Shown here piece by piece: positions 6,837 through 58,400 of a stretch of DNA of 64,000 nucleotides. Source of the DNA: Candidatus Sumerlaeota bacterium (lineage in GTDB: Bacteria > UBP6 > UBA1177). The stretch lies in the NCBI GenBank assembly GCA_007132725.1, contig SLOD01000011.1, positions 117 to 64,116 of the forward strand, written 5' to 3'. The position numbers and the translations under genes were made by a program. Below the pieces are notes generated by a model. The model was not told where the DNA came from. It worked only from the letters and a program-made list of their open reading frames with translations, and searched no databases. Position 1 is the stretch's first letter; every line of letters begins with the position of its first letter.

Positions 6837-7253
6837 ATGGACAGAAAAAAAATGACCGTACTGGTTCTTGACGATGAGGAAAATATTCTTTCCAGCCTTA
6901 AAAGAATACTTGAAGGATGTGGTTATACTGTCATTACAAAAAGTAAGCCGGAAGAGGCTATTGATTATGTACGGAACAATGTTGTTCATATTGCATTGCT
7001 GGATATCCTTATGCCGAATATGGATGGAATAACAGTCCTCAACATAATTAAAGAGATCAGTGGACTGACTCAGGTTGTAATGATGAGTGCATACAGCACC
7101 GTGGATCGAATAGTATCAGCACTTGAAAACGGAGCCAATGATTTTCTGCTAAAGCCTTTTGATAATATTGATGCTTTTATTTCCATCATAGAAAATTCAG
7201 AAAGCAAACTTTTAAGATGGCAGAAAATATTATCTGAAACCGGAGCAATTTAA
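6837..7253 (+). CDS. Stand-alone response-regulator receiver (CheY-like).
   Basis: VLVLDDEEN...LLDILMPNMDG...S...KPF signature. Strong RBS GGAGGataataATG. Confidence 0.8.
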   Translation: MDRKKMTVLVLDDEENILSSLKRILEGCGYTVITKSKPEEAIDYVRNNVVHIALLDILMPNMDGITVLNIIKEISGLTQVVMMSAYSTVDRIVSALENGANDFLLKPFDNIDAFISIIENSESKLLRWQKILSETGAI

Positions 7254-7254
7254 T

Positions 7255-20753: not shown

Positions 20754-21818
20754 TTGATGAAAACAGATACTCATTTTTGTTTTACAGTCATTTTTTTACT
20801 TCTTCTGGGATTCCCTTACTTTATTACAGGGATCTCTGCAAAAGAAATTCTTTTCAAAGATGTAAACTTTGAATTATGTGTCAAAGAACATATTGATGAT
20901 AACTCCAACACAATCACAACCGGGCATCTTGAAAACATTGAAAAGCTTGAGTGCAACAACAGAGAGATATTTGTTATTGAGGGGATAGAATACATGTCCG
21001 GACTTAAGAAAGTCTCTTTCAGAAACAACTCCATAAGTGACATATCTCCCCTTAGAGTACTTACAAAACTTAATGAGCTTTGGCTTACCGGTAATTTTAT
21101 TGAAAATACCGACCCTCTTGCAGAGCTAACCGCTCTTTTGGTACTTGGGCTGGGGAACAATAAAATAAAAGAAGTAAAATCTATTTCACAACTTAAAAAT
21201 TTAACCCGGCTTGGAATAGAAAACAATATGGTTACCGACATATCTCCACTTTCGAACCTGCAAAACCTTCAGGCACTTGCAATGAGCGGAAATAAGGTCA
21301 AAGACATAAAGCCATTAAGCAAGATGAAAAAACTTTCCTGGATATGGGCTGATTCAAATAATATATCAGATATTTCTCCATTATCGTCAATGCACTGGAT
21401 AACACATGTAGAGCTTGGAAACAACAACATATCCTCTGTTTTACCAATTAAAAACCTTAAGAACATTGTAAGGCTCGGACTTGACTCAAACAGTATAAAA
21501 GATGCTACTCCACTGAAAAATATGTCTGCACTTAAAAGTCTCGCTATTTCTAAAAACAGGCTTTCTGAAATAAGTTTTATAAAGCAACTTCACAACCTTA
21601 CCTGGCTTGGGGCTTCACATAATAATATTTCTAACATAGAACCGTTAACATCTCTAACAAAGTTAAAACATCTTCTTTTAAGCAACAACGCTATAAAAGA
21701 TGTCAACCCCCTTTTAAACTTAAAAAATCTCAAACATGTTGACTTGTCTAATAATCCTGTTTCCGATTTTTCTGTGCTTGATCCTTTAACTGACTCCGGA
21801 GCTGTCGTCATAAAATAA
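20754..21818 (+). CDS. Secreted leucine-rich-repeat protein (internalin-like 22-residue LRRs, ~13 repeats) with an N-terminal signal peptide.
   Basis: Repeats of LxxLxxLxxLxLxxNxIxDIxPL, e.g. NISDISPLSS..., MVTDISPLSNLQNLQAL. Confidence 0.75.
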   Translation: MMKTDTHFCFTVIFLLLLGFPYFITGISAKEILFKDVNFELCVKEHIDDNSNTITTGHLENIEKLECNNREIFVIEGIEYMSGLKKVSFRNNSISDISPLRVLTKLNELWLTGNFIENTDPLAELTALLVLGLGNNKIKEVKSISQLKNLTRLGIENNMVTDISPLSNLQNLQALAMSGNKVKDIKPLSKMKKLSWIWADSNNISDISPLSSMHWITHVELGNNNISSVLPIKNLKNIVRLGLDSNSIKDATPLKNMSALKSLAISKNRLSEISFIKQLHNLTWLGASHNNISNIEPLTSLTKLKHLLLSNNAIKDVNPLLNLKNLKHVDLSNNPVSDFSVLDPLTDSGAVVIK

Positions 21819-23151: not shown

Positions 23152-23778
23152 TTGTTGTTTGTCTTTTGTCAGAGCTTGGGCTTTGCGTTTTGTTTAGGAG
23201 AGGAAGCAAAGTTGGAAGAACTTATCAAAGAAAACCTTGATGTTATCTTCAGTTACTCATTATTTATCACGGGTAACAGGGAAAAAGCTCTTGACCTTAT
23301 GCAGGATACAATAATTACCGTCTTACGAAAAAAACACCTCTATAAAGAACAGACCTATTTCAAGTCATGGATATTTAAGGTTCTAAAAAACAACTTTATC
23401 AACACTTTAAAAAAAGAAAGTATCCGTAATGAAATAAATTTAACTGACATTTCCAATGAAGGAGAGGAAACACCTGTTTTTTTAAATCGGGACAATGCGG
23501 GAATTGAATATCTAAACGACCCGATCCTTAGAAGTAAAATATATGAGGTGTTCTCTGATATGCCACAGGAATATAAAGATGTCGTTACATTAGTTGAAAT
23601 AAGTGAAATGTCGTATGAAGAAGTTTCTCAGGCACTTGATATTCCATTGGGAACAGTAATGAGCAGACTTCACAGAGGACGGATGTATCTTAGAAAAATG
23701 CTTCGTAAAGAAGCTGGTGAGTTAAAAATAATTTCAAAAAAAGGACAGGAAAAATGCACGACAAAAAATGCGATTTAA
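23152..23778 (+). CDS. ECF-type RNA polymerase sigma factor. A plausible alternative start is TTG 23212 with RBS AGGAGAGG.
   Basis: Region 2 (...DLMQDTIITV...) and region 4 HTH (DIPLGTVMSRLHRGR). Confidence 0.75.
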   Translation: MLFVFCQSLGFAFCLGEEAKLEELIKENLDVIFSYSLFITGNREKALDLMQDTIITVLRKKHLYKEQTYFKSWIFKVLKNNFINTLKKESIRNEINLTDISNEGEETPVFLNRDNAGIEYLNDPILRSKIYEVFSDMPQEYKDVVTLVEISEMSYEEVSQALDIPLGTVMSRLHRGRMYLRKMLRKEAGELKIISKKGQEKCTTKNAI

Positions 23779-24575
23779 ACGAACTTTTTATTGAACAACT
23801 CATTGACAGTGAGTTGGATTTTAGTGAAAGTTCTGAAGTTTCACTTCACATTGAAAGCTGTGCCAACTGTAAAAAAATATATGATGAACTGAAATTTGTC
23901 CGCGTCATCATGAAAGATGTTGAAAAAAGAGAAACGCTCTCCCCAATTGAAAAAGAAGGTTTCTATAATATGATCGAAAAACATGCTGCCAAACTCTCAG
24001 TATGGGGGAAAATAAAAACTTTTCTAAATACAAAAAGCCATTTTATATTTGCTTTCACCTCTATGTCTTTTATTTTACTGACAGCTTTTTTTATTTTTTC
24101 AATTTTAAACATTGACAGCAGCAGGGACCTTATAATACAGGAAATAATTTCTGCCCATGACAACAATTTTCCGGAAGAATTCAGTATGACTGCCAGCGAA
24201 GAATCTCTCAAGAATGTTAACCTGAAACAGCTGAAAGTCGATCCTGTAGTAATAAGAGAACTGGCTAAGATATCCCCTGTATTAAAAGGGCGTCATACAT
24301 CTATTGCCGCTCAACCCATGGCTAAAATAAAACTGAAAGATAAAAATTCTACCGGAACTCTTTTAATGAGCAGAAAAAACGACACTATAAAAAATGTATT
24401 TCAAAATGCAAACTGTGTAGTGAGATATCCTGATGGAAAAACTTGCAAAGCTACATCATACGAACAGGACGGCAAAGAAATAGTTTACTGGGCATCAAAA
24501 GAGAATGAATATGTTTTTGTGTCGGACAACAGAGATTTGAGTTCAAGAATGATACGCCTTATTGGTTCCCATTAA
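23754..24575 (+). CDS. Anti-sigma factor (zinc-finger type, single TM) cognate to the upstream ECF sigma.
   Basis: N-terminal HxxxCxxC (HIESCANCKK) zinc-finger anti-sigma motif; one TM (FIFAFTSMSFILLTAFFIF). Overlaps the sigma gene 3' end. Confidence 0.65.
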   Translation: MHDKKCDLNELFIEQLIDSELDFSESSEVSLHIESCANCKKIYDELKFVRVIMKDVEKRETLSPIEKEGFYNMIEKHAAKLSVWGKIKTFLNTKSHFIFAFTSMSFILLTAFFIFSILNIDSSRDLIIQEIISAHDNNFPEEFSMTASEESLKNVNLKQLKVDPVVIRELAKISPVLKGRHTSIAAQPMAKIKLKDKNSTGTLLMSRKNDTIKNVFQNANCVVRYPDGKTCKATSYEQDGKEIVYWASKENEYVFVSDNRDLSSRMIRLIGSH

Positions 24576-24586
24576 AGTTTAACCGT

Positions 24587-27500
24587 TCAACTATTATCAA
24601 CATCTTTTATTTTTGAAACCTCTTTTTTTAATTTAGAAGTTTCGGTATTAAGTTTTTTGGAAACCTGATAAATGCTGTCAACCATCCCGGTATTTTCCTG
24701 AGTTATCTTTCTGATATCACTTAAAGAAATATCAACCGAGCGCACCTCGTCAGTATGGTCTTCGATTATTTTTCTTACATCGTTCATTTGTCTTGAAATG
24801 GTCTTGAACTGACCTATTATTTCACTGATAAATTTTACCGTATTGTTAACGGATGACCTTCCTGAAACAACTTTTTCAGAAGTATCATCTATCAGTTTTT
24901 TTATTGTCACGACAGCATTGGAAGTTTGTAAAGAAAGTTCTCTGACAGAATCTGCCACAACAGCAAAGCCTTTTCCGGCATCACCTGCTCTGGCTGCTTC
25001 AATAGCGGCATTAAGAGAAAGGAGGTTTGTCTGGAAAGCAATATCATCTACAACTTCAACTATGTTTGAAACCTCTAAAGCACTGTATTCTATCCTTTCT
25101 ATTGATTCCACAGCTTCGCTGAGGACGGAAGTGGAGAGATCGGCTTTTTTTGAAATATCAGAAACCGTTTCATGCATGACCTGTACTTCATCTTTTGTTT
25201 CCTCAAGCTTGCCTGTTATATCAGACAATGTAGAAGATGCTGTATCTATCATTGCATAAGTTGCATTAAATTTTTCAGCGGTCATACCCGTATTCGATGA
25301 TATTACTTTAGATATATCTCCGAGAGTATCAGAAAGTTTTTGAACATGCAGTATTATGTCTTTAAGATTTTTCGTTCTGGTCGCAATTGTGCTGCTCATA
25401 GTAGTTTCTCTATCCTTTATCTCAGCACTTTTCTTTCTGATATAGGACACTGCCATGTATCCGGCAGCAAGAAGAATAATAAGCCTAAACCACCATGTCT
25501 GCCAGAAAAAAGGTTTAATGACGATAATGAGAGATACCCCCTCATTATTCCACACATTATCATTGTTGGCTGCAAGCACCTTGAATTCATACTCTCCGGG
25601 ACCTAAATTAGTATAGAAAGCATTTCTCTGTGTGCCGACATTTCTCCATCTGTCATCAAAACCCTTCAATTTATATTTAAATGTCACCTGATCAGGAAAA
25701 AGTAAGCTCAGCCCGGTATATTCAAAAGAAACCATCGTTGTACCCGGTTCGAAAGAAAACCTCTTTCTGCCATGGACAGGATAAGTGACATCATCTATAG
25801 TTACAGATGTAATATGAACAGGAGGCACCACAGAGTTGTGTCTCATATCTCCCGGATCAGCAACAACCAAGCCTTCTGCAGTAGGCACCCATATTCTGCC
25901 ATCTCTGCTCCTCCAGATGTTAGGCTGTGTTCCTCCGTTACACTCAGGAGTTAAAAGACCATCTTTAAACCCGAAAGTTCTGGGTTCGACAGTAGAAGTC
26001 CTTCCACTAAGAAAAGAGTCAAGGTCACTTTTCTCTATAAATTTTATCCCCTTGTTGGATGTCAACCATAAGTTACCGTTGAAATCCTCAGTAACATCGA
26101 AAATAGTTCTTGTATCCAATCCCCTGCTTCTGTCAATTGTTACTGCCCCCAGCTCTTTGTCATAAATAGTGAGTCCATTTTCCGAGGCAAAAAACAGTCT
26201 TCCGTCAAAAGCGGAGTAAATAGACAAGGTCCCAATATTCTCAAGATTTGTAAATTCAGTGATCAGTTTTTCACCTTGAACTCTAAACGGTCCTAACTTC
26301 GTTGCAATCCATATTGAACCCGATCTGTCTTCTGTAATACCCGACAGACCTATATTATCAGTCCCGGGCAAGGTAATAATTTTGTCTCCTTTCATATAAG
26401 CAAGGCCACCTGTAAGCATCCCTATCCAAAGAGTACCTCTTGAATCTTTGAACAGGGCAGAAATGTCTTTGCCCGGCAAACCATCAAACTCATCATATAA
26501 TCTGGCTACTCCGTCTTTCAGCCTTAGGAGTCCTTTTCCATAGACTCCGGCCCACAAAACTCTGTCATTATCTTCAAACAAAGAGAGCACAGTATCATAA
26601 GATTCCAACTTTCCCCTGAAAGTGTATCTTGTCAACTTGTTATCCCTCAACCGGTACAATGCACCCGCCCAGGTTCCAAGCCACATTGAACCATCATGAC
26701 TCTCAAAAACAGGAAAAACTACAGGCTGATCTAAGCCGCTATGTCTTCCATAAGTTATAAACTTCCCCTCCTTGAACCGGTAAAGACCGTAACCGCTGGT
26801 ACCGACCCAGACACTCCCTTCTCTATCCTCAAGGATACTGAAAACATAATTTTTACCTATAGAGCTGACATAGTTATCATCATCGGAACATATTCTGAAG
26901 AGTCCATCGTTGTATGTCCCCACAAAAACACATTCATGGTTATCAACATACAGCCCGCTTATCATTCTGTTAGCAAAAAACTCAGGTCTATATGAGCGGG
27001 ATCTACCAGAGACAGTATCAAACAAATATACTCCGGCACCTCTTGTTCCAAGCAGAAAACTTCTCTCGTCTATAGCCACAGCTTTGGTTATTTCGCGTGG
27101 AAATTTAAGTTCTTTTGTGGCTCTTGTTCCCTGGAGCCTTGAAAAGTAACTTTCTGTTCCAACCCATATTGTCCCGTCACCGCCTTTAATAACTTCTCCT
27201 ACGTTATCTGATGGAAGCCCGGACGATTTATTGATTACTGCTTCAACGCCGTTTTCTCCTAACACAACAAGACCATTTCTCCTTGTTCCAAAATAAAAAG
27301 TTCCATTGTTATCTTCAGCACCGGAAGTGATATTGTTGCTTGGAAGACCTTTTTGAGTATCAAAAATTTCATAGGTTTCATCTATATAGTTAAATTTTAT
27401 AATTCCTCCGCCATCTGTCCCTATCCACAGATAAGGTTTGGTCGAATCTTCCAGAATAAGTTCTGTTTTGTGGTTATCAACAGGAAAAAAGGAGTCGTCG

Positions 27501-27724
27501 TAAACATCCATTTTTATTCCGTCAAATTTAACAAAACCCTCTTCCGTTCCAAGCCACATAAAACCATCTCTTGCCTGAACCATTGTTCTCACAGAGTTTT
27601 GGGGAAGTCCGGACAAAATATCGTAGCTGTCGATCATAAATTGATCAAGGGAAATATCTCTGGATAAACCATCAAGCACCATCATAGAAATAAAAACCAA
27701 AAAATAAACAACTGTTTTTTTCAT
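24587..27724 (-). CDS. Methyl-accepting chemotaxis protein with a large periplasmic two-component-regulator-propeller + Y_Y_Y sensor module, one TM, and a cytoplasmic MCP signalling domain.
   Basis: Signal peptide and repeated Reg_prop-like blades (GLPxNxVxxxxxDxxGxxWxGT). Y_Y_Y-like [18 protein letters not shown], then [20 protein letters not shown]-terminal highly conserved MCP core [31 protein letters not shown]. Confidence 0.7.
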
Positions 27725-27791
27725 GTTTGTTTTCCCGTTCAGTCAATCTCCTGCTACAGTAAGGATATTTAATTAAGACAAAAATCTCAAG

Positions 27792-28706
27792 TTATTTGTT
27801 ATTAAGTAATAAAAAGAAAGGGAGCTTTATTAACTTTTCCCATACTATCAGCAAGGTGCCCAAACTGATAGATAAAAGACCGATATAAAAACCATGTTCC
27901 GGCTTTTCATATAGGAGCACAAAAGCCATTAAAGTTGTAACGGCAGGCTTTAACATAAATATCAAGGAAGCACTGACAGCGGAAAAGCGTTTTATCGTTT
28001 CGAAAAATGTAACATACCCTATTCCGGTAACAACAAAACCAAGGTAAAAAAAGGCAATGATATTTTCAGGAACTCCAAAAAACTCCAAGGGAAGCGAAAG
28101 TTTTTTACCGGACAGTGCTATAAAAATTCCACTTGCTGCCAATCCTAAAGGAAACGCAACCATATTCAATGTTAATGGCTGTATCTTTGAAACCATTTTT
28201 TTGCTCAACAAAGTATATGAAGCAAAAGCAATCGCAGAGAAAACCGCAAAAACAACACCAGTGCCCGCAACAAAATTTTCTCCCTGCATTATAATGAAAA
28301 TGCCCGTTATCCCGATAAAAAAACCCACCACCTTTTTTAAAGAGAACTTTTCATAACCAAGAATAACTGCAAAAATAAAAACAAAGCCGGGATTTGAACA
28401 GAATATTGTTGCCGCAGTTGATGCAGAGCTGTATTTTACTGCAACTTGAAGAAAACTCATTGCAAGGAATGTATTCAAAAAGCCAAGCATAGATACAGCT
28501 AACCAGTCTTTTTTACTAAGTGATCTTATTTCCAAAAATCTTTTCTTCGTCCCGGGATAAAAAAAGAAAAACAATGCTCCTGCGGTAAATCTCCAGAAAG
28601 TAAGGGCGTATGGGTCTATCGTATCCATAAGCGGTTTTGAAACAACTTCCATAGATGAAAAAATAAACAGTGTGAGAAGAAAGTAAACCACATCGCCTCC
28701 TGCCAA
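27792..28706 (-). CDS. EamA/DMT-superfamily transporter (10 TM).
   Basis: Two EamA-like halves and overall hydropathy. Confidence 0.6.
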   Translation of the reverse strand: MAGGDVVYFLLTLFIFSSMEVVSKPLMDTIDPYALTFWRFTAGALFFFFYPGTKKRFLEIRSLSKKDWLAVSMLGFLNTFLAMSFLQVAVKYSSASTAATIFCSNPGFVFIFAVILGYEKFSLKKVVGFFIGITGIFIIMQGENFVAGTGVVFAVFSAIAFASYTLLSKKMVSKIQPLTLNMVAFPLGLAASGIFIALSGKKLSLPLEFFGVPENIIAFFYLGFVVTGIGYVTFFETIKRFSAVSASLIFMLKPAVTTLMAFVLLYEKPEHGFYIGLLSISLGTLLIVWEKLIKLPFFLLLNNK

Positions 28707-28753
28707 CGATCAGACCGATGTAATCTCAATTGTTTTAAAAAGTCAATTTTAGC

Positions 28754-30241
28754 TTAATTTATAAAAAACTTAAAGACCTTTGAGGCGAAAGTAATTTCTT
28801 TGATAACATTCAAAAAATCTATGAAATCCCGTGGCATGGAACGAACCAAGAAGTATTTAAAAGAAACCGCATAAAGGATCAGGGTGACTGTGCCAGTGAT
28901 GATCAGTCTTACAACAGGATATGAAAAATCGGTTAACATGAGTCCGACAAAATAGACAACCGTACCTATCGGAGCAGTTACAAGAAAAACAGGGGCCAAA
29001 TAAGTTATAAGCTCTGTCGTTTTTAAGTTGACCTGCAGTTTTAATAAAAAAGTTACCATAACATAGCTTAAAAATATGGCAATTGATGTAGAAACTGCTA
29101 CCCCGCTTACGCCCCACTCTTTACCGATGTAAGCTCCACCGATTACCAGCGTGGCATAAATAACTTGGAGCCAGGTTCTTTTATAAACAGCTCCCAGAGA
29201 CTTTACTAAAGCGTCACTAATTTTATATGCTGTCCTGAAAAATAAACTTATTATCAAAACCTTAAATAAAACTTCTACATCATCCCAGTTAGGGCCCAAA
29301 ACCGTCCTGATCAGGTCCCCCCCCATAACCAGAGAAAAAACGGTTATAGGAAGTGCCATCAATGCAACAAAAGCTGTTATGTTGAGGAAAACATATTTAA
29401 TTTTTTCATGCTTATCCTGATATTTTGCAAACAGAGGAAAAAGCACTTTGTCTAAGACAGACCCTATTAAATTGGTTGGAACCAACAACAATTGATATGC
29501 CCGATTATAGAAACCAAGACTGAAGCTGCCTAAAGCTCTGCTCACAACAAAGTTGTCTCCCTGAAGAGCAAAATTGTTGACTACTCTTGATAATGTAAAA
29601 CCTGTGCCAAGAAACAAAAGATCTTTAACAGATGACATTGTTACATTTAAAGACAGAGGGATTCTTTTTATAATAAGTAATGATATCGTTTTAACTGCCG
29701 CCTGTGCTATATGGGCAAAAACCAGAGACCACGCCCCCAGTCCTGCCAAAGCAAAAAATATAGCAAAACCGCCATATAAAAACAGAGAAAAGATATTTAT
29801 CAAGCTTAGTTGTTTGAATTTCATATCCCTTTGCAGTAAAGACTGGGGTACTCCGGATATACTGTGAATAATAAAAATTAGAGAAAAAACTCTAAGCATA
29901 GGTATATTTTCTATACCGACAAATCCGGCAATTGCGGAGGCGAAAATATAAATAACCAGATAAATTATCAACCCGAATAATATGTTTAGAATATTTCCTG
30001 TAACTATATCACTTTCAGTTAAAGTCTTTTTCTGAATAATTGCCGGACCTATACCCATCATCCAGAATATTTCAGCAAAACTGACAACAACATAAACTGC
30101 GGCAACAGCACCGAATTCCACGGGAAGTAAAAGTCGGGACAATATTGTCATGATCAAAAGCTTCATCATGACAGTCCCCACACTCATAAAGCTCATCCAG
30201 TAAACACCCAAAACCGCTTTTTTACGATCACTACCGGACAA
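28754..30241 (-). CDS. wzx: Polysaccharide/O-unit flippase (Wzx, MOP superfamily).
   Basis: ~12-14 TM protein of 495 aa with polysaccharide-biosynthesis-protein family pattern. Confidence 0.6.
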   Translation of the reverse strand: MSGSDRKKAVLGVYWMSFMSVGTVMMKLLIMTILSRLLLPVEFGAVAAVYVVVSFAEIFWMMGIGPAIIQKKTLTESDIVTGNILNILFGLIIYLVIYIFASAIAGFVGIENIPMLRVFSLIFIIHSISGVPQSLLQRDMKFKQLSLINIFSLFLYGGFAIFFALAGLGAWSLVFAHIAQAAVKTISLLIIKRIPLSLNVTMSSVKDLLFLGTGFTLSRVVNNFALQGDNFVVSRALGSFSLGFYNRAYQLLLVPTNLIGSVLDKVLFPLFAKYQDKHEKIKYVFLNITAFVALMALPITVFSLVMGGDLIRTVLGPNWDDVEVLFKVLIISLFFRTAYKISDALVKSLGAVYKRTWLQVIYATLVIGGAYIGKEWGVSGVAVSTSIAIFLSYVMVTFLLKLQVNLKTTELITYLAPVFLVTAPIGTVVYFVGLMLTDFSYPVVRLIITGTVTLILYAVSFKYFLVRSMPRDFIDFLNVIKEITFASKVFKFFIN

Positions 30242-30276
30242 TTCAAATCCCCTCTAAAAAACAACAGACCAAATCT

Positions 30277-30936
30277 TCATTTATAGTTTTCTTCATACCA
30301 TTTTCCATGGATACAAGCTACAATAACAGGAACCGTTTTTATTTTCAATATCTTGGCAATAGTTAAACGATGTCTTCCGTCTACAAAATAAAAATCTCCG
30401 TTCCGCCCTATACAGACTCTTATTTCGTCCCATGGTCTGTAAGATCCCAATTCTTCTTGGCTCTTATAACCGTTCCTTTTAATTTCTTCATAGAGTTCAT
30501 CATCTTGTTTTAACCTGGCATCCCATGATTCTATGCTATCACATCCAAATCGTGGAGTTCCCCCCTTTATCTGTTCACAGACACGATGATAAAAATCTGT
30601 TTTATTCCAAGGAACCCCAAGAGCATAGTGTTGGTAGCTCGATGAAAAAAAATCTATCTCACCAAGCTCGACGATGTTGTTGTCCCAATCCCCATAAATT
30701 ATTTTGCCAATTTGGAAGGGCGACTTTCTGCCCTCTACAAGTCGGTCTTTTACTGCATATTTTATTTTTTCAGTAGGAATCCAAAGCAGTTTCTTCAAGG
30801 GTCTGGTTCTATTGGGTAAAAACTTTTCAACCACTAAAAACAAATTCCAAAGATAAAAAATAAAAAGCTTTTTGATTTTTCTAAGAAACAGATATTTTTT
30901 TATGAAGCTGTATGCCGAACTGTTTTTAAAGCTCAT
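30277..30936 (-). CDS. Hypothetical protein; C-terminal FVDGRHRLTIAKIL motif reminiscent of the ParB/sulfiredoxin-fold DGxHR motif.
   Basis: Translation only; no confident family assignment. Confidence 0.3.
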   Translation of the reverse strand: MSFKNSSAYSFIKKYLFLRKIKKLFIFYLWNLFLVVEKFLPNRTRPLKKLLWIPTEKIKYAVKDRLVEGRKSPFQIGKIIYGDWDNNIVELGEIDFFSSSYQHYALGVPWNKTDFYHRVCEQIKGGTPRFGCDSIESWDARLKQDDELYEEIKRNGYKSQEELGSYRPWDEIRVCIGRNGDFYFVDGRHRLTIAKILKIKTVPVIVACIHGKWYEENYK

Positions 30937-32152
30937 TCTTCTTTTTCCGACTCATTATTAACTCTGTTCCGTACAGAGATGTGAAAACTATTAAATATGA
31001 ATTTTTTTCCAAATCCCCACTAAAAAATGCTGTTATCAATGCAAAAAGTGCATACCAGAAAAAAACTCCTTTACAATTGAATCTTTTTTTCGATATTACC
31101 GGGTAAAAAAGAGGATACATGGCAAAAACAAATAAGATCAAGCCTATGAGTCCTGTTTCTGCAAGCAGTTCCAGAATAATGTTATGCGGATAGGTATGAA
31201 CAGAGTACTTATAGCTGCCAACACCTTTCCCCAGTACCGGGTTTTTGACAAAATCATCCCAGGCTGTGGTGTACAAAGATATTCTGGATTGTATATTTCT
31301 TTCTTCCCAAACAGTAGCTCCTCCTCTTGTAATATAGTCATCAAGCCCTAAATTTAGGAGTCCTGCAAATAAAAACAGCAACATAATAATCACATGGGGA
31401 GTCAACAACCAATACTTCTTGTTTCTAAACAGTACCTTTGAATATTTAAAAAGAAGTATCATTATCAGTCCCAAAAGAGGTGCTCTTGAACCGCTAAGGA
31501 CAATTGAAAAGATAAATATGGCAACGAGCAAGTATTTAAGTACCGGTTTTTTTAAAACATTTAAAGATGCTATCAAACTTAAACCGGCTTCTCTGGCAAC
31601 CCATATAGGGTTTAGACCAAAAAATCTTATCCTTCCGACAAGCCCTTCTGTCAACCATGTTTTTGCAATAAAAAAACTCTGGAATACTCCTATGAAAAGT
31701 ATAGCTTTTTCTATTTTTTCCTTAGTGTTATTTTTTCCTAATAACAGCCATGCAGAAAGCAGAAACCCGGAAAAAACACCTTTTAGCATAAACAAATTAA
31801 TTTTTTCCAAAGCATAAGACTGATGATATGTATTACGGGATTGTACAAAATAGTTAATATAGAGATAGATCAAAAAAATTAACCACGGACCAAAAACTTT
31901 AAACAAAGTGGTAAAAGGCTCTATATCAATTTTAGGCTTCAAACTTAATTTTTTAAGCATAAATCCTAAAACAAGCAGACATGAAAGCAGAAACCAGATC
32001 AGCAGTGCCCCGCCATCTTCTCTCAACACACCTATATCTTTTAAGAACAAACCCCAGACTGTCAAACCTATTGACGGCAGCAAAAACAATACAGGGGCAG
32101 CTCCCACCAAAAAGACAATTATTATCAAGGGGAGATAAAATAGTATGTTCAT
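30926..32152 (-). CDS. wzy: O-antigen polymerase/ligase family membrane protein (Wzy-like).
   Basis: Polytopic, with a large periplasmic loop near the C-terminus; position in the glycan locus. Confidence 0.5.
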   Translation of the reverse strand: MNILFYLPLIIIVFLVGAAPVLFLLPSIGLTVWGLFLKDIGVLREDGGALLIWFLLSCLLVLGFMLKKLSLKPKIDIEPFTTLFKVFGPWLIFLIYLYINYFVQSRNTYHQSYALEKINLFMLKGVFSGFLLSAWLLLGKNNTKEKIEKAILFIGVFQSFFIAKTWLTEGLVGRIRFFGLNPIWVAREAGLSLIASLNVLKKPVLKYLLVAIFIFSIVLSGSRAPLLGLIMILLFKYSKVLFRNKKYWLLTPHVIIMLLFLFAGLLNLGLDDYITRGGATVWEERNIQSRISLYTTAWDDFVKNPVLGKGVGSYKYSVHTYPHNIILELLAETGLIGLILFVFAMYPLFYPVISKKRFNCKGVFFWYALFALITAFFSGDLEKNSYLIVFTSLYGTELIMSRKKKNEL

Positions 32153-32182
32153 TCCTGTTAAACCCCTCTTTTTATTTAAATA

Positions 32183-33085
32183 TCAGAAGCGGTTTTCTTT
32201 TATATTTTTTCTATAGCTCAAAAAAGATATAAAAAGTTTTTTTAAAGCAGTAAAAGGAGTACCCGTTTTAAAAATATACTTTATACACTTCAATAAATTT
32301 TTCTGCTTGAAGTATCTTTTAGCTATTTCTATATTTTGAGCAGTGTAAATTGCTTTTTGCTTCTCTTTATCAAAAGAATTGATTATCGGAGCTACTTTTA
32401 AAATATAGTGTTTTCTAAACTCCACTCCTCTCTCTACATCAGATGGAGTATTTCTTTTTAGAACATATCTGGTCATGCAGACTTGAGGAACTGCAACAGC
32501 TTTATACTTCTGAGATAGCCGGACACAAAATTCTATGTCCTGGTCTCTTTTCATAGTAGTATCAAAACCTCCTGTTTCAAGCCAAGCATCCTTGCTGACC
32601 AAAAGAACACTTGAAAGTAAGCTCACTTGCATAGACAGCAGACCGAAACAGATGTCCCCTTCTTTTTCAGCCATTATCACTCGACGCCTTCCATCAAAAA
32701 ATATATTTTCATAAGAAGTGTAACAAAAAGCGTGGTCTTTGCTTTTACCGGATAGTCTTTCGATCTGAATACGGATTTTGGATGGATGAAAAATATCGTC
32801 ATCATCCAGTAAGGCTATATATTTACCTTCTGCATTAGATACTCCAGTGTTGCGAGCTGCCGAACCATTAAGATTTTTTTCATGCTTAATATATTTCACT
32901 TTCGGGTTGTCTTTATATTTTTGAAGCTTACCTTCTGTTTCAAGCTGAAAATGTGTTCCTAAACCATTATCATCTACAACAATAACTTCTATATTTTCAT
33001 AATCCTGTCCCAATGCACTGTCTACAGCCCTGCAAATAATATCAGAACCTTTGTGCGTGGGGATGACAATGGAAACCATATCCAT
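32183..33085 (-). CDS. Family 2 glycosyltransferase.
   Basis: VSIVIPTHK...VIVVDDNG and DDDD motifs. Confidence 0.75.
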   Translation of the reverse strand: MDMVSIVIPTHKGSDIICRAVDSALGQDYENIEVIVVDDNGLGTHFQLETEGKLQKYKDNPKVKYIKHEKNLNGSAARNTGVSNAEGKYIALLDDDDIFHPSKIRIQIERLSGKSKDHAFCYTSYENIFFDGRRRVIMAEKEGDICFGLLSMQVSLLSSVLLVSKDAWLETGGFDTTMKRDQDIEFCVRLSQKYKAVAVPQVCMTRYVLKRNTPSDVERGVEFRKHYILKVAPIINSFDKEKQKAIYTAQNIEIAKRYFKQKNLLKCIKYIFKTGTPFTALKKLFISFLSYRKNIKENRF

Positions 33086-33106
33086 GTTGCTATACTCGCC
33101 TCCGCT

Positions 33107-34228
33107 CTATATTTTGCCTGTTAAAATGGTTCTATATATTTTTAAATATTCTTCTGACATTTTTTTTATGTCGTACTTCTTTGATCTTTCTATACACCTT
33201 TTCGCAACCTTTTCATATTCTTTTTCCCGATCAAGCAGCCACTTGATCTTGTCTGCCAGATCCTTCTCATTCTCCTTTTCAAACAGAATGCCAGCCCCAG
33301 AGACAATCTCAGACAAACCGCTGATATTACTTGCAACAACAGGTTTGCCTGCTGCCATACCCTCAATAGCGACCAGTCCAAAACCTTCCCAGTGGGAAGA
33401 AACTACTATTAAGTCAGATGTTTTAAGTATTTCAGGGATATCCTTTCTTATACCTAAAAACTTCACTCTCTGAGAAACACCCGAAATGTCTGCTAATTTT
33501 TCATTTTCTTCTTTGAGGGGTCCGTCCCCTGCCAACAGTAAAAAAACATTTTCAGGCAAATACTTCATAGCTTTTATCACTGTGGCCTGATCTTTTTGTT
33601 TAGAAAACCTTCCCACCATGCACAATAATTTAGTGTTTTCTGTTAAAGTACTGTCTATTTCCGATTTAGAACACGGGACAGCTTTGCTAAAACTGGCAAG
33701 ATCAACTCCATTATAGACAACTTTAAACTTGTCTCTGTTTTTCCTTGAGATTTTTATCCAATCCATAAGGTTTTTCTGTGTCCCGTCACTTATGGAAATA
33801 ACCGTATCATAAGCACTGTACATGAACTGTTCCAGTATTCTAAAATAAAATCTTCCCCGTCTCCTGTTGTGGGTGCTGTGTTCCGTGGTGATAAATTTTG
33901 GTCTGTACTTTTTCATAAACGATCTGGAAACCAATGAAACCCAGTAATTACAAGGGAATAAATGACTATGGACAATGTCATACTTTCCTTTTAAAATATG
34001 TTTTTTTATATAAATTACATTCATAGGACAATATATTTTTCTTCTTGGGACGACATCCACCTGAATATTATTTTTCTTAAGCTTTTCACCAAAGAATTTT
34101 TTTTTGTCACTTAAAATAAGGACGTGAGCTTCAACATTTTCATCTCTGTTCATATACAAAGCAGACTCTTCAACAAGTTTTTCAGCCCCCCCTGCACTTA
34201 AAGAGTTGATAATATGGAGAATTTTCAT
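33107..34228 (-). CDS. Family 4 (GT-B) glycosyltransferase.
   Basis: C-terminal EGFGLVAIEGMAAGKPVVAS (E-x7-E motif). Confidence 0.75.
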   Translation of the reverse strand: MKILHIINSLSAGGAEKLVEESALYMNRDENVEAHVLILSDKKKFFGEKLKKNNIQVDVVPRRKIYCPMNVIYIKKHILKGKYDIVHSHLFPCNYWVSLVSRSFMKKYRPKFITTEHSTHNRRRGRFYFRILEQFMYSAYDTVISISDGTQKNLMDWIKISRKNRDKFKVVYNGVDLASFSKAVPCSKSEIDSTLTENTKLLCMVGRFSKQKDQATVIKAMKYLPENVFLLLAGDGPLKEENEKLADISGVSQRVKFLGIRKDIPEILKTSDLIVVSSHWEGFGLVAIEGMAAGKPVVASNISGLSEIVSGAGILFEKENEKDLADKIKWLLDREKEYEKVAKRCIERSKKYDIKKMSEEYLKIYRTILTGKI

Positions 34229-35367
34229 TCGCCATCCTTTAAATCTTTGTTTTTAAACTGTAAAATTTTTTTTACTTCTTCCATATAAGCGTCAACAACG
34301 ACTTTTCTATTAAATTCTCTTTCCATCTTTTTCCTTCCTTCAAGACCCATTTCCCTTTTTTTATCATAAGGAATATTAATAAATTTTATGATCGTATCAA
34401 CTAAACTTTCAACACTTTTAACTCTAAACCCTAAACCACTCACTCCTTCATCAAAAGTTTCAATGCAACCGGGTACTTTTGATGCAAGAAGAGGTCTTCC
34501 TGTTGAAGCCGCTTCAAGAAGAACATTACAGATTCCTTCATGATAAGAAGGAATCACTATCGCATGGCTTTGCTTGTACAACTTATGCATATCCTCTTTA
34601 CTCAAGACTCCATCATAAATTACTGTTTTATTTTCAATGTATGGTTTTAAAATATTTTCATATTTCTTTTCCGCTCTTCCCGCAACATGAAATTCCGTAT
34701 AAGGATATCTGTCTCTAATTTTTTTTGCTGCTTCAAGATACTCAAAAACACCCTTTTCTTTCATTATTCTTCCTGCAAAGAAAAATCTTAATCTTCCATC
34801 ATCTTCCGGATATTTCTCAAAGTTATGATGATCAGTATTGACTCCTGAGCCTGGAATTATTTTTGCTTTACCCTCTTTTACAATGTTGTTTCCGGTCATA
34901 AAATCTTTTATTGAACTGTTTTGAAAAAATACCCTGCTTGCTCCTTTCAGCCCTGACTTATAGAGCAACAACGATATCTTCGCCAGCAATCCTTTTCCCT
35001 CTATAGATGTCCCTAGTCCGGTAATATTAGAAATATATGGAACACCCGTTATTCTGCATGCGATACCACCGAAAACATTTGGCTTTATTGTGTAGGTAAA
35101 AACCACATCCGGTTTTATATCCTTCATTATCTTTATGTATTTAACAAGAAGAAGAATGTCCTTCAAGGGATTTATTCCCCTTCTGTTAACAGGAGCTAAA
35201 ACAATTTTGCAGCCTAAACTCCTGAAATAATGTGTTCTTTCACCATCAGGAGTTGCAATTGCCACACTATACCCCTCTTTTATTATGGTGTCTATCAATT
35301 CAACTCTGAAGCTATATAAACCGCTTATGGAGTTCGTTATAACCACAACTTTTTTATCATAAACCAT
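34225..35367 (-). CDS. Family 4 (GT-B) glycosyltransferase.
   Basis: HEGICNVLLEAASTGRPLLAS. Confidence 0.75.
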   Translation of the reverse strand: MVYDKKVVVITNSISGLYSFRVELIDTIIKEGYSVAIATPDGERTHYFRSLGCKIVLAPVNRRGINPLKDILLLVKYIKIMKDIKPDVVFTYTIKPNVFGGIACRITGVPYISNITGLGTSIEGKGLLAKISLLLYKSGLKGASRVFFQNSSIKDFMTGNNIVKEGKAKIIPGSGVNTDHHNFEKYPEDDGRLRFFFAGRIMKEKGVFEYLEAAKKIRDRYPYTEFHVAGRAEKKYENILKPYIENKTVIYDGVLSKEDMHKLYKQSHAIVIPSYHEGICNVLLEAASTGRPLLASKVPGCIETFDEGVSGLGFRVKSVESLVDTIIKFINIPYDKKREMGLEGRKKMEREFNRKVVVDAYMEEVKKILQFKNKDLKDGE

Positions 35368-36001
35368 TGTTGTTTTCCAAACTGTTTACTTTTAAATATT
35401 CCAACAGCAGATATCCATTATCAAGTTTTTCCCTTACAACAACTTCACTAATTGCTTTATGAGAAAAAATGGAAGCAAAGTTTTCACTTGAAACTGTTGA
35501 AAAAATTCTTAATTTTGAACTCCAAGCTGAAATGTGCATTATTTTAGCCATTGTTTTTGCTATCCCTTTTCCCTGATATCTTCCATCCACTACTCTCCCT
35601 ACAAATACTTTTGAGTTTATGAAACATCTCAAGAAAAAATATCCGGCAATCTTATCCCCGTCAAAAACTCCCATCATTATGAATGAGGGGTTTTTAAGCA
35701 GCCTTTTCAGAGTCTTGACATCAAAAGAGTGGGGTTTAAAAAACTTAAACTGTTCCTGATCCTGCTCTTTAAAAAAAGCTTCAAGGTATTTCAGGTCATC
35801 AAATTTTATAAATCTGTAAACCAATTGACCATCATTTTGTTTTTCCATATTTTCAACAAGATTTTTTGTCAGTTTTTTAGAGTGAAGAAATGAAAAGATC
35901 AAGCCATTGACACTTTCAGCAATTATCCATATAGAAGGGAACTTTCGTTTAAACCATATCAGGAACTTTATCATTCCCACAGTCCTTTTATTATCAGGCA
36001 A
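35357..36001 (-). CDS. GNAT-family N-acetyltransferase. Likely start MIKFLIW at about 35974.
   Basis: RVVDGRYQGKGIAKTM = acetyl-CoA-binding R/Q-x-x-G-x-G/A motif. Confidence 0.55.
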   Translation of the reverse strand: MPDNKRTVGMIKFLIWFKRKFPSIWIIAESVNGLIFSFLHSKKLTKNLVENMEKQNDGQLVYRFIKFDDLKYLEAFFKEQDQEQFKFFKPHSFDVKTLKRLLKNPSFIMMGVFDGDKIAGYFFLRCFINSKVFVGRVVDGRYQGKGIAKTMAKIMHISAWSSKLRIFSTVSSENFASIFSHKAISEVVVREKLDNGYLLLEYLKVNSLENNNGL

Positions 36002-37083
36002 ATCCTTTTTAGATCTTCGTCTGTCATCTTTGTGTCACTTGGAAGACAGACTCCGTTTTCAAATAAACTTTCTGCAACTGTTCCCGCTATGTGATCATAT
36101 TTTTTAAAGAATGGTTGGAGGTGCATCGGTTTCCATATAGGTCTTGCTTCGATATTATCTTTTTCAAGTGCTTCCATTATGTCGATTGGTTTTATTTTGC
36201 CGTTTAACTGGATACAGGTTAGCCAGAAGTTTGGTTCATTCCAACTATTTTCAGGCATAAATTCAAGTCCTTGAAGATTTGAAAGTTCTTTTTTATAGAA
36301 TTCAAAGATGTATTTTTTCTTTGCAACTCTTCTATCAAGAACTTTTAGCTGACCTCTCCCTATTCCTGCAAGAATATTACTCATTCTGTAATTAAATCCT
36401 ATCTCGCTGTGCTGGTAGTGTCTCGCCTCGTCCTTGCTTTGTGTTGACCAGAACCTTACTTTTTCTATTTTTCCTTTGTCTTGAGATACAAGCATACCCC
36501 CCCCTGAAGTGGTTATTATCTTGTTCCCGTTAAAGGAAAAAACACCATAATCTCCAAAGGTACCAGTATGTTTTCCTTTGTAGTATGATCCTAAAGACTC
36601 AGCCGCGTCTTCAATGAGGACAGCATTGTGTTCCTTGCATATTTTAACAATTTCGTCCATATCTGTACTGAGTCCGTAAAGATGGACTACTATAACTGCT
36701 TTTGCATGAGGATACCTTTCAAACGCTTTTTCAAGTGCTAAAGGACACATGTTCCATGTTTTAAGATCACTGTCTATAAAAACCGGGGTCGCATTTTGAT
36801 AGATTATCGGATTGGCCGTTGCAGAAAAAGTTAAAGATTGACAAAAAACAATATCGTCTTTTTCCACACCTGCCGCTTTCAAAGCAAGATGAATTGCAGC
36901 GGTTCCGGTTATCAATGCAGCAGCGTGCTTACTTTCCGTTTTAAGAGCAAATTCTTTTTCAAATTCATCTACATTCTTCCCAAGAGATGTTATCCAGTTG
37001 GAATCAAAAGCCTCTTTCACAAAATCCTGTTCAAACCCTTCTTCGCTCATATGCGGAGATACAAGTAATATTTGCTTTCCCAT
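35971..37083 (-). CDS. DegT/DnrJ/EryC1/StrS-family sugar aminotransferase (PglE-like).
   Basis: Fold-type I PLP enzyme pattern with ...FSFNGNKIITTSGGGM... (PLP lysine). Confidence 0.75.
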   Translation of the reverse strand: MGKQILLVSPHMSEEGFEQDFVKEAFDSNWITSLGKNVDEFEKEFALKTESKHAAALITGTAAIHLALKAAGVEKDDIVFCQSLTFSATANPIIYQNATPVFIDSDLKTWNMCPLALEKAFERYPHAKAVIVVHLYGLSTDMDEIVKICKEHNAVLIEDAAESLGSYYKGKHTGTFGDYGVFSFNGNKIITTSGGGMLVSQDKGKIEKVRFWSTQSKDEARHYQHSEIGFNYRMSNILAGIGRGQLKVLDRRVAKKKYIFEFYKKELSNLQGLEFMPENSWNEPNFWLTCIQLNGKIKPIDIMEALEKDNIEARPIWKPMHLQPFFKKYDHIAGTVAESLFENGVCLPSDTKMTDEDLKRICLIIKGLWE

Positions 37084-37111
37084 GTGTCCGATCCTTTTTA
37101 TGTTTATTCTT

Positions 37112-37801
37112 TTACAGGTTTTTCTCCAACAGCTTTTTGCTGAATTTTATTTTTTCATCATATTCACCTTTGTCAATTTTTCCAGTTCTAAGCAGATAAT
37201 CTCCAAAATCTTCAGCTGTATCCATTCCCTTTGTAACTACATCATCACGTTTAAAAACTTTGGCAAGTGTCATCAGAATAATTTTACAATCTTTCAGGAA
37301 AGAAATATCTTTAACATATTGAAGATCCAAAGAAAGCTTTTCTTCCCAGGAAATATTGTTTCTTCCGTTAACTTGTGCCCACCCTGTAATTCCAGGCAGA
37401 ACACTATGTCTTTTTTTTTGCTCGTCCGTCATAAAAACCATATCTTTAACAAGTTGAGGCCTTGGACCTACAATGCTCATATCTCCCCTGATAACATTAA
37501 TAAATTCCGGAAGCTCATCAAGACTCGTTGACCTTAAAAATTTTCCGAACCCTGTAAGCCTTTTATTGTCGGGGAGCAACTCCCCATTGTCATCTTTTTC
37601 ATTTGTCATTGTCCTGAATTTATTCATGGTAAAAATTCTTTCATTAAGTCCCGGTCTTTTCTGGGTAAAAAATACCGGACTTCCAAGCTTAACCTTAACC
37701 ATAAAAGACAAAGCTAAAAAAAGAGGAAAAAAAACGATCAGGGCTATAAATGAAAGTACAAGATCAAAGATCCTTTTGAAGAACCCTCTGTAGACCATCA
37801 C
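37112..37801 (-). CDS. Bacterial sugar transferase (small monotopic phosphoglycosyltransferase, PglC/WbaP-C-like).
   Basis: N-terminal re-entrant helix, KRPGLNERIF...NKFRTM and ...DELP motif. Confidence 0.75.
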   Translation of the reverse strand: MMVYRGFFKRIFDLVLSFIALIVFFPLFLALSFMVKVKLGSPVFFTQKRPGLNERIFTMNKFRTMTNEKDDNGELLPDNKRLTGFGKFLRSTSLDELPEFINVIRGDMSIVGPRPQLVKDMVFMTDEQKKRHSVLPGITGWAQVNGRNNISWEEKLSLDLQYVKDISFLKDCKIILMTLAKVFKRDDVVTKGMDTAEDFGDYLLRTGKIDKGEYDEKIKFSKKLLEKNL

Positions 37802-37855
37802 TTTATTTTGTCATAGTTGATATCGTTATTAAATTTACCAAAAACCTTTTCATCT

Positions 37856-39055
37856 TTACATCTTGCTGTCAAGATACTTGTTTTTTTCAATATGACCAAA
37901 ATCAGGAATAAGTTTAAAAAACTCGGAAAGTATCTCCTCCTTAGTCCAGATACCGTTATTTTTCAGTTTTTGCATATTGAGAACAAATTTATCAAGAAGA
38001 GTTCGGTCTATGTTTATTTCATTTCTGACTATCCCTATATCTTTGAATCTGATAATATTAACCTCTTCGCTTTTCATGTAAAACTCTTCGTAACTTTTTT
38101 CTCCGGCAGTGTCACTTTGAAAAAAGAAACAGGGCCACTTCCCGTTTTTTATCAATTCATCAGATCTTTTTCGGGCTTCATCCTCCGTTTCGCACAAAAA
38201 AGGAGTATAATTATTTGCTTCAAGAAACTTTACAGCTATATCTGAAAATTTCATCATATTTAACTTTTCGCTGAGCTTTGGAAAAAAAATATCTCTGTTC
38301 TTACCCGTCAATGCAGACATTAAACAAAGTTCCCCACCTTCCTGTTGTGTAACAAAATATCTTTTTACATCGTCAGGTGCAGAGATCGGCTCTCTTTTCA
38401 TAAGTCTATTTTGAAAGCTGTGAAGAAGACTTCCATCTGAAAAAGCTACATTGGCAAACCTCGCAGTAGAAATAGCGATATCTCCACCTTCTTTTATAAG
38501 AAACATCTCCATTATCCTTTTAGAAGCTCCCATCATATTAACAGGGTTGGCAGCTTTATCTGTTGACACACAGAAATATTTTTTGGGACTGCCCGTGCCC
38601 GAAGATCTTAAAAACCGGAGATTCTTTATTGTGTTTAAAACATTTACTTCAACAAGCCTCATAAGAGTGTAGGGATCTTTTTCGCTTCGTACATGTTTCA
38701 ATGCGGAAAGGTTTAAAATATAGTCATAATTCCTCTGGTTTTTTAAGAAGGCATCAAAGATATCGCTGCCGCAATCTATAGCAAATGTTTTGAACTCCCC
38801 TTCGATGTAGCCTAACGAACTCCTGACATGCCTGACAAGTTCTACAAGATTGTTCTCACTTATGTCAACGACATGCAGCAGTTTGGGGTTTCTCCTGAAA
38901 ATTTCAAAAACCACGGACTGCCCTATTGAGCCTGCTCCACCCACAACAAGAAAGGATGATCCGGATATTTCCTCTTTCAAAAAACAATCGTTTTCGTTTA
39001 TATCTTCTGTAAAAAGTTTTTCTTTTCTTCCGATCAGCGAAACAACATCCATCAT
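37856..39055 (-). CDS. Nucleoside-diphosphate-sugar 4,6-dehydratase/epimerase (CapD/PglF-like, soluble form).
   Basis: VVGGAGSIGQS NAD(P) loop, SxxK ...YxxxK short-chain dehydrogenase/reductase (SDR) features. Confidence 0.65.
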   Translation of the reverse strand: MMDVVSLIGRKEKLFTEDINENDCFLKEEISGSSFLVVGGAGSIGQSVVFEIFRRNPKLLHVVDISENNLVELVRHVRSSLGYIEGEFKTFAIDCGSDIFDAFLKNQRNYDYILNLSALKHVRSEKDPYTLMRLVEVNVLNTIKNLRFLRSSGTGSPKKYFCVSTDKAANPVNMMGASKRIMEMFLIKEGGDIAISTARFANVAFSDGSLLHSFQNRLMKREPISAPDDVKRYFVTQQEGGELCLMSALTGKNRDIFFPKLSEKLNMMKFSDIAVKFLEANNYTPFLCETEDEARKRSDELIKNGKWPCFFFQSDTAGEKSYEEFYMKSEEVNIIRFKDIGIVRNEINIDRTLLDKFVLNMQKLKNNGIWTKEEILSEFFKLIPDFGHIEKNKYLDSKM

Positions 39056-39102
39056 TTACCCTCAAGACAATGAAGCTTGATCAATGTCTAAATAAAAACT
39101 TG

Positions 39103-43557: not shown

Positions 43558-43602
43558 AATCTCCTCCTTTTAATATATCTATTTTCAAACATTCAAAAAC
43601 AG

Positions 43603-47419: not shown

Positions 47420-47432
47420 ATCACTACCACAC

Positions 47433-48782: not shown

Positions 48783-48783
48783 T

Positions 48784-49884: not shown

Positions 49885-49898
49885 TTTCCACCTCCCGG

Positions 49899-52282: not shown

Positions 52283-52291
52283 GCGAACCTC

Positions 52292-53572: not shown

Positions 53573-53574
53573 TT

Positions 53575-57088: not shown

Positions 57089-57104
57089 AAACTGTCGCTC
57101 CGGT

Positions 57105-57461: not shown

Positions 57462-57481
57462 AATCCACCTCTTTATAAAGA

Positions 57482-58399: not shown

Positions 58400-58400
58400 C

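Follow-up and report, generated by a model that had tools for sequence, protein, structure and literature searches.

The gene described here lies on the minus strand, at positions 24587 to 27724, of a stretch of 64,000 nucleotides from contig SLOD01000011.1 (the window). Its product of 1045 residues is best explained, with a confidence somewhat above even, as a membrane chemoreceptor, that is, a transducer of the methyl-accepting chemotaxis protein (MCP) type in which a propeller-sensor cassette is grafted onto a Tsr-like MCP hairpin of 36 heptads, and which would signal as proposed below. The grafted input cassette would consist of a signal peptide, two seven-bladed propellers, the immunoglobulin (Ig)-like Y_Y_Y domain, one transmembrane (TM) helix and an S-helix. 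By its MCPsignal domain and its conserved tip, the protein can be assigned to the MCP superfamily. A previous reading made from the letters of the DNA (the sequence-only reading) had described a chemoreceptor equipped with a sensor of the Bacteroides hybrid two-component system (HTCS) type. Three points go beyond that description: the S-helix found in the place of HAMP, the absence of methylation sites and a likely cleavable signal peptide, which would make the receptor single-pass.

Domain architecture and integrity of the gene

The coding sequence is one uninterrupted open reading frame (ORF) with an ATG start. A Pfam scan, which the sequence-only reading had proposed as a check, recovered the three predicted domains: Reg_prop (E=9.4e-38), Y_Y_Y over residues 677-737 (E=1.6e-16) and MCPsignal over residues 854-1007 (E=1.4e-32, 113 bits for a cutoff of 34.6 bits). 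HAMP, whose absence had been predicted, was indeed not found by Pfam in the 1045-residue protein even at E<=1; the same method detects it in the proteins P0125, P0129 and P0131. The NCBIfam models of Tar, Trg, Tsr and Aer2-type MCPs matched the cytoplasmic part only (residues ~774-1039, with Tar 248-513 aligned to 774-1039), and neither Pfam nor NCBIfam gave a match to HisKA, HATPase_c, REC or an AraC-type helix-turn-helix in this protein. Two hydrophobic segments are apparent by hydropathy, one at the N-terminus (residues 3-21) and one at residues ~739-762 (DNA 25439-25510). The latter is the single TM announced after Y_Y_Y, and it agrees with the junction expected at about 25400-25500. The parts of the gene are the following.

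24587..27724, minus strand: complete coding sequence, with 14 Reg_prop blades, Y_Y_Y, TM, S-helix and MCP signalling hairpin (ORF list, Pfam).
27662..27724, minus strand: N-terminal hydrophobic segment, probable cleavable signal peptide, residues 1-21 (hydropathy, family N-termini).
26735..27643, minus strand: first seven-bladed beta-propeller (Reg_prop), residues ~28-330 (AF2 model, Foldseek match to BT4663).
25850..26734, minus strand: second seven-bladed beta-propeller, residues ~331-625, with ECNGGxQP at 594-601 (AF2 model, invariant columns).
25514..25825, minus strand: membrane-proximal Y_Y_Y Ig-like beta-sandwich, residues ~634-737 (Pfam; model strands 636-736).
25439..25510, minus strand: transmembrane helix, residues 739-762, with the entry motif P-F-F-W-Q-T-W-W-F (hydropathy; motif conserved).
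25358..25438, minus strand: juxtamembrane S-helix-like helix, residues 763-789, its register continuing to ~808 (heptad register, RT motif).
24599..25357, minus strand: MCP antiparallel coiled-coil hairpin, residues 790-1042 (Tsr/1QU7 alignment, NCBIfam, model helix).
24932..25048, minus strand: hairpin tip, the putative CheA/CheW-binding and trimer-contact region, residues 893-931 (Tsr identity, clade conservation).

The sequence-only reading would have been undone if a propeller-sensor gene and a soluble MCP gene had been joined near 25400-25500 by an error in sequencing or assembly. The probability of such an artefact is close to nil. No point in support of it was found, and those database members of the family that are truncated fragments lie on short contigs. 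The protein is identical in three assembly sources, NCBI, ENA and Logan (P0001). Nineteen further proteins from independent metagenome assemblies, 1014-1049 residues long and 41-73% identical, contain the same three Pfam domains. The alignment of these 20 full-length members is collinear and free of indels at the TM/junction region, across which K765, E773, I780, R783, T784, L787 and H793 are invariant. Their sources differ widely in GC content, from 37.5% (window), 38.1% (L001) and 39.6% (L085) to 60-61% (loci of P0016), and a collinear architecture in about 20 proteins from genomes of 37-60% GC argues against a fusion by error. An exhaustive HMMER search over 1.84 billion cluster representatives, using as query the junction-spanning fragment of residues 560-1045, points the same way: six 50%-identity representatives scored 441-706 bits and the next match 232 bits. 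Five of the six were matched end to end, and one is truncated near query residue 392. On these comparisons the gene is real, conserved and under selection, since every domain is kept in 20 collinear orthologs and the tip is 93% identical across clades that are 23 GC points apart.

The periplasmic sensor

An AlphaFold2 (AF2) model of the sensor (residues 1-775), built on 120 homologs, reached a pLDDT of 94.2 and a pTM of 0.87. Its ~55 strands are arranged as two seven-bladed propellers (~47-325 and 336-622) and an Ig-like sandwich (636-736), followed by a helix at 744-774 that corresponds to the TM helix. In the first propeller, 28 strands make up seven four-stranded blades over 47-325. Comparison of the sensor half with solved HTCS sensors by sequence gave E values of 1.8e-44 (4A2L/4A2M) and 4.6e-44 (3V9F). 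When the model was compared to the PDB with Foldseek, the top matches were BT4663 (4A2L, TM-score 0.80, E ~1e-44; 4A2M, 0.70-0.73) and BT3049 (3V9F, 0.78); BT4673 (3OTT/3VA6) came lower at 0.45, and the next fold, PorZ, at 0.28. With values that lie well outside what chance would give, the HTCS type of the sensor is established at the levels of sequence (E ~1e-44) and of fold (0.78-0.80). The fold match spans ~770 columns at an identity to the Bacteroides sensors of only 21-22%. The model fits the chains of 4A2L (0.79-0.80) better than those of 4A2M (0.70-0.73), which are probably the apo and the ligand-bound form, respectively.

Like the HTCS sensors BT4663 and BT3049 of Bacteroides thetaiotaomicron, the window protein combines two seven-bladed Reg_prop propellers with Y_Y_Y and a single TM. 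Its output, however, is an MCP hairpin, in contrast to the HisKA/HATPase, REC and AraC modules of the HTCS, and its gene is devoid of the polysaccharide utilization locus (PUL) context of the latter, the neighbours being EamA, polysaccharide biosynthesis, extracytoplasmic function (ECF) sigma/anti-sigma and aminotransferase genes. Because the cytoplasmic part is an MCP hairpin, the protein is not an HTCS and has only the sensor in common with this class.

The ligand had been thought to be possibly an oligosaccharide. According to this explanation, which must be regarded as unlikely, an oligosaccharide or a fragment of a glycan binds to the propeller module and the cell swims in the direction of increasing glycan. 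The only homologs with defined ligands are the Bacteroides HTCS sensors, for instance the heparin/heparan sulphate sensor BT4663 (4A2L/4A2M), and one ortholog locus (L088) contains genes for a CBM9-domain protein and an FGE-sulfatase-domain protein ~5-9 kb away. The identity to these HTCS sensors is nevertheless a mere 21-22%, and no SusC/D, glycoside hydrolase or PUL-like gene was found next to the MCP gene, either in the window or in the majority of the ortholog loci. Moreover, members of the sensor family occur in Acidobacteriota, Verrucomicrobiota and other groups, where they are linked to histidine kinase (HK), GGDEF or Ser/Thr kinase (STK) outputs. Known cases of glycan sensing are limited to Bacteroides HTCSs that adjoin PULs. 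Given the missing SusC/D or carbohydrate-active enzyme (CAZyme) context and the varied outputs of the sensor relatives, the idea of a glycan ligand is not supported beyond the distant homology to the Bacteroides sensors.

The N-terminus consists of MKK, 14 hydrophobic residues and D-G-L-S/R-D, for a family consensus ..L-S-G-L-S/K-D (the slash indicates the putative cleavage site). The family N-termini have in common a K/R n-region, an h-region of 12-15 residues and small residues at -3/-1, and they most likely represent a cleavable signal peptide rather than a first TM helix. With this predicted cleavage, the mature protein would therefore be single-pass. In the last propeller blades, the motif E-C-N-G-G-x-Q-P (residues 594-601, window ~25922-25945) does not vary within the MCP family and hardly varies across the 120 sensor relatives, regardless of their output domain. 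It may serve the sensor family as a whole as a structural or signalling element.

The junction between membrane and signalling bundle

HAMP is a four-helix module of about 50 residues. As only ~27 residues separate the end of the TM from the start of the pairing between N-arm and C-terminus (915-127=788), there is no room for it. Judged by its register and a partly conserved motif, the segment that follows the TM helix is instead the sensor family's own S-helix. The a/d heptad register, derived from family-averaged hydrophobicity, runs unbroken and with a constant phase over residues 762-808 (47 residues) and shifts at ~809-816. T782-R783-T784 falls at positions c-d-e of this register; R783 and T784 are invariant in the family, and position c is occupied by T, S, A or N, never by E (A781-T782-R783-T784 in the window protein). 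By definition, an S-helix is a parallel coiled coil 40-45 residues long whose central heptad bears 'ERT' at positions c-d-e (PMC1592074), and a parallel dimer geometry would be expected in the window protein as well.

The comparison with relatives of other outputs leads to the same assignment. The TM-entry motif is conserved in the 120 sensor relatives whatever their output domain, and the HK-, GGDEF- and STK-linked ones carry [E/D][R/K]T at a modal distance of 42 residues past PxFxQTxWF, exactly the spacing of T-R-T in the window protein. The Reg_prop/Y_Y_Y/S-helix kinases, cyclases and STKs (P0021-P0120) thus have the whole input cassette in common with it, including PxFxQTxWF and the (E)RT 42 residues on, and differ from it in the output domain. 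From TM entry to ~790 the alignment is gap-free across all output types, and the sequences diverge by output right after this point. The portable unit would therefore comprise sensor, TM and S-helix, and the MCP bundle would have been joined just past the RT heptad. Such a junction is mildly unusual, given that a survey of the S-helix lists fusion to the MCP domain among the architectures it 'typically avoids' (PMC1592074).

The MCP signalling hairpin

Residues 825-1037 (213 residues) give a gap-free alignment with the Tsr fragment 1QU7, and residues 805-1037 align with positions 282-513 of full-length Tsr with one gap of one residue. Length differences of ~14-17 residues appear in the alignments with TM1143, Tm14 and PcaY. 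The U-turn residue D915 corresponds to Tsr E391, the C-arm comprises 127-130 residues or ~18 heptads, and the full-length AF2 model shows a helix over 790-1042 with moderate confidence. The bundle can be classified as Tsr-like and '36H-like', a class assigned by alignment to Tsr and not by formal class hidden Markov models. The protein stops at the end of the bundle, with neither a flexible tail nor a C-terminal pentapeptide.

The 39-residue tip (893-931) includes the 31-residue motif, residues 901-931, from which a canonical MCP domain had been recognised. This was well founded, as 28/39 positions are identical to Tsr 369-407. The trimer-contact and U-turn positions known from Tsr are presumably kept in the window protein, as F897, L901, L904, N905, I908, E909, R912 and F920. 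Between the 37%-GC and the 60%-GC clades of the family, the mean identity of the tip is 93%, compared with 36-50% for the other domains. A near-invariant tip argues for an existing partner of the CheA/CheW type.

In comparison with Tsr and Tar of E. coli (36H), the hairpin is collinear and gap-free over at least 213 residues and the tip, as stated, is largely identical. The other parts differ: the sensor is a double propeller of ~720 residues, whereas that of Tsr/Tar is a four-helix bundle of ~150 residues; the S-helix replaces HAMP; each subunit probably has one TM, not two; and conserved methylation pairs, C-terminal linker and NWETF pentapeptide are all missing. The equivalents of the Tsr methylation pairs read F-N, I-D, S-D, D-S and N-T in the window protein, and only the 60%-GC clade retains EE and QQ seven residues apart (LVEEVHRAAQQL), in the region of Tsr E492/E493. 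Since many MCPs lack canonical methylation sites, this absence lowers the claim to the name 'methyl-accepting' and not the claim to be an MCP-type transducer.

Relatives and origin

The sensor relatives P0021-P0120 are 30-36% identical to the window protein over ~75% of the query and come from many phyla. A quick neighbour-joining tree, computed from the last blades, Y_Y_Y and TM, has no support values and is only indicative; in it the window MCP family forms one pure clade, and the other MCP-linked sensors are scattered singly among those linked to kinases and cyclases. These other Reg_prop/Y_Y_Y-MCP fusions belong to the same Pfam architecture class; P0125, P0127, P0128, P0129, P0131 and P0158 were verified with Pfam, and P0126, P0143 and P0148 were assigned by the tip motif only. 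Their MCPsignal stretches are longer, HAMP is present in the three proteins named above, and the tip is divergent in P0127 and P0128 (AIEAKKAGKAGIGF, SIEAASAGEYGAGF). They look independent of the window family, and this rare but recurrent class of architecture probably arose more than once. Three Verrucomicrobiota loci (L010, L017 and L047) were considered as further fusions and rejected: they translate into HisKA_3/HATPase kinases, and their tblastn matches reaching query residues 970-1009 are coiled-coil noise.

A search with the cytoplasmic domain returned no close paralog outside fragments of the family; the best match, a short MCP, is 44% identical and is followed by generic 36H-type alphaproteobacterial MCPs at 30-40%. 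No donor of the MCP half emerges from these matches, which reach at most 44% outside the family. The public annotation of the family is automatic only, either 'methyl-accepting chemotaxis protein' or 'two-component regulator propeller domain-containing protein', and nothing relevant on Reg_prop or Y_Y_Y chemoreceptors was found in the limited collection of literature searched.

Proposed signalling mechanism and cellular output

The following mechanism can be proposed. The receptor would be a homodimer. Binding of a periplasmic ligand to the propeller module would change the angle or the distance between the two membrane-proximal Y_Y_Y domains, in the manner of scissor blades and as in BT4663, and the two single TM helices would move relative to each other. 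This movement would be transmitted by the parallel two-helix coiled coil of the S-helix (763 to ~790-808) directly to the four-helix bundle, without HAMP, and the resulting change in the bundle would modulate a CheA-type kinase held together with CheW at the conserved tip. Adaptation, if any, would operate in this clade without the canonical Glu/Gln methylation pairs. The scissor-blade model was put forward for the homologous BT4663 sensor by Lowe et al. in 2012, as cited in PMC11253607. A bolder version, in which the receptor exemplifies a distinct type of chemoreceptor transmembrane signalling, is rather doubtful: a single-pass, HAMP-less and methylation-independent MCP dimer, whose ~720-residue sensor scissors the lone TMs and acts through the S-helix onto CheA, would give an uncultured lineage of phylum level the means of taxis towards a ligand that is large or derived from a polymer.

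Several observations weigh against the proposed mechanism. Both the dimer and its scissor motion are taken over by analogy with BT4663. The E of 'ERT' is not kept (A781-T782-R783-T784), and in the full-length AF2 monomer, based on 20 sequences, the pLDDT is <50 at residues 770-793, so that a continuous helix through the junction is suggested by sequence periodicity and not by the model. The strict methylation consensus [ASTG][ASTG]xx[EQ][EQ]xx[ASTG][ASTG] occurs in 0/20 family members. Finally, no cheA/W/Y/R/B, flagellar or type IV pilus gene was detected across the 64 kb window and the ~4 kb of additional contig beyond its ends, no che, flagellar or pilus gene lies beside any ortholog examined, and there are no che or motility genes around the short MCP of 44% identity. 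As none of these genes occurs where they were searched, the coupling to a Che system is deduced from the conservation of the tip only. The sequence-only reading had concluded that the organism is motile and chemotactic. The gene content of the window, its flanks and the ortholog loci does not bear this out; the claim depends solely on the strongly conserved CheA/CheW-binding tip, and the present finding establishes nothing about the lifestyle of the organism.

The behavioural output could be taxis by flagella or by pili, or could lie in another Che-like pathway. It is possible, if less probable than not, that the same protein feeds a Che-like pathway which does not steer flagella and which governs type IV pilus motility or serves some alternative cellular function, for instance the control of exopolysaccharides or biofilms. 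The Dif pathway of Myxococcus is reportedly a Che-like system of this kind, with exopolysaccharide or biofilm control as its alternative function. This output would be in keeping with the absence of canonical methylation sites and with the position of the gene in the low-GC clade, directly downstream and on the same strand of EamA and of glycosyltransferase or Wzx/Wzy polysaccharide genes, a neighbourhood that is nevertheless absent in the 60%-GC clade. The lineage is also relevant. The nearest genome record, a syntenic contig of a metagenome-assembled genome (MAG) with 71% identity and a GC content of 0.381 (L001), is labelled Candidatus Sumerlaeota, and the published MAGs of Sumerlaeota all carry type IV pilus genes, with flagella and chemotaxis restricted to some subgroups (PMC8092238). 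However, this label is doubtful: published Sumerlaeota MAGs have 53-65% GC (PMC8092238), as opposed to 37.5% in the window, and the relatives of the window FtsZ, down to ~45% identity, all come from unclassified MAGs, which indicates a deep uncultured lineage. Nothing was found that speaks directly against the alternative output.

Under the preferred explanation, that of a propeller-sensor cassette grafted onto a Tsr-like hairpin, the window protein is a rare MCP whose sensor and coupling are of an undescribed design, present in an uncultured lineage. Models of chemoreceptor signalling rest mostly on HAMP-containing receptors with two TMs and small sensors, for which the accepted input is a piston movement of TM2. 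A chain leading from an HTCS-type sensor through one TM and an S-helix to a Tsr-like bundle would test this piston picture, and would reveal if the bundle of an MCP is also able to read another mechanical input and if sensor, TM and S-helix constitute an input module freely portable between kinases, cyclases, Ser/Thr kinases and MCPs. The collinearity of the cytoplasmic part with Tsr should make chimeras in E. coli practicable, and these could provide a behavioural or Förster resonance energy transfer (FRET) read-out to de-orphan the Reg_prop/Y_Y_Y sensors, a very large family of which hardly any member has been characterised.

Genomic neighbourhood

In the window, the MCP gene lies downstream of an EamA transporter gene and a Wzx/Wzy-type polysaccharide cluster encoded on the same strand (27792-40698, minus strand). 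This Wzx/Wzy-dependent cluster comprises a flippase, Wzy_C, one GT2 and two GT4 glycosyltransferases, a DegT aminotransferase, Polysacc_synt_2 and Wzz. A promoter-like sequence is located within the 67-nt gap that separates the upstream EamA gene from the MCP start.

27762..27790, minus strand: weak sigma-70-like promoter match TTGAGA-17-TATCCT, 9/12 (consensus scan only, no evidence of function).

The MCP gene could equally well be transcribed from its own promoter or together with EamA and the polysaccharide cluster. On the other side (23152-24575, plus strand), an ECF sigma factor gene (208 aa) overlaps the gene of an anti-sigma-like membrane protein of 273 aa; the two genes run towards the MCP gene, and 11 nt separate the facing stop codons. 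In the low-GC clade (L001, L085, L088 and L089) the arrangement EamA > MCP < anti-sigma < sigma < aminotransferase is kept, which is not so in the 60%-GC clade. In the latter, a gene for a lipoprotein of 291-295 aa (L082 13171-14058 and L087 13159-14034, plus strand) begins 18-24 nt downstream of the MCP ortholog and is probably part of the same operon. The lipoprotein has a lipobox LVSC/ILSC, is 76% identical between L082 and L087 and has no Pfam match. It was considered as a family-wide partner and rejected, being unrelated to the anti-sigma-like neighbour and devoid of a homolog in the window.

Other features of the window

Neither a tRNA gene nor an Rfam family at the gathering threshold was found over window positions 1-64000. 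Housekeeping genes include dxr, cdsA, uppS, frr, pyrH, the gene for S1 and a dcw cluster (42163-58880, minus strand) that extends from mraZ, rsmH, a PASTA-containing penicillin-binding protein and mur ligases to ftsA and ftsZ. Additional signalling genes encode a REC-Hpt fusion (1325-2068, minus strand), a stand-alone REC followed by an HDOD/HD-GYP protein (6837-8526, plus strand) and a second HD-GYP-like protein of 592 aa (58948-60726, plus strand); none of them is Che-specific. A 1087-aa ORF with no Pfam match (10730-13993, plus strand) encodes an N-terminal hydrophobic segment followed by ~900 residues of extremely K/E/R-rich predicted coiled coil, which accounts for the strong purine skew at 12-14 kb (GC skew +0.25, AT skew +0.40). 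A 789-aa homolog of Peptidase_C25, a gingipain-like cysteine protease, is encoded at 60730-63099 (minus strand). Finally, a 354-aa leucine-rich-repeat protein (LRR_4, LRR_8) is encoded between pyrH and the aminotransferase gene (20754-21818, plus strand), and a protein of similar size occupies the same position in L001 and L088.

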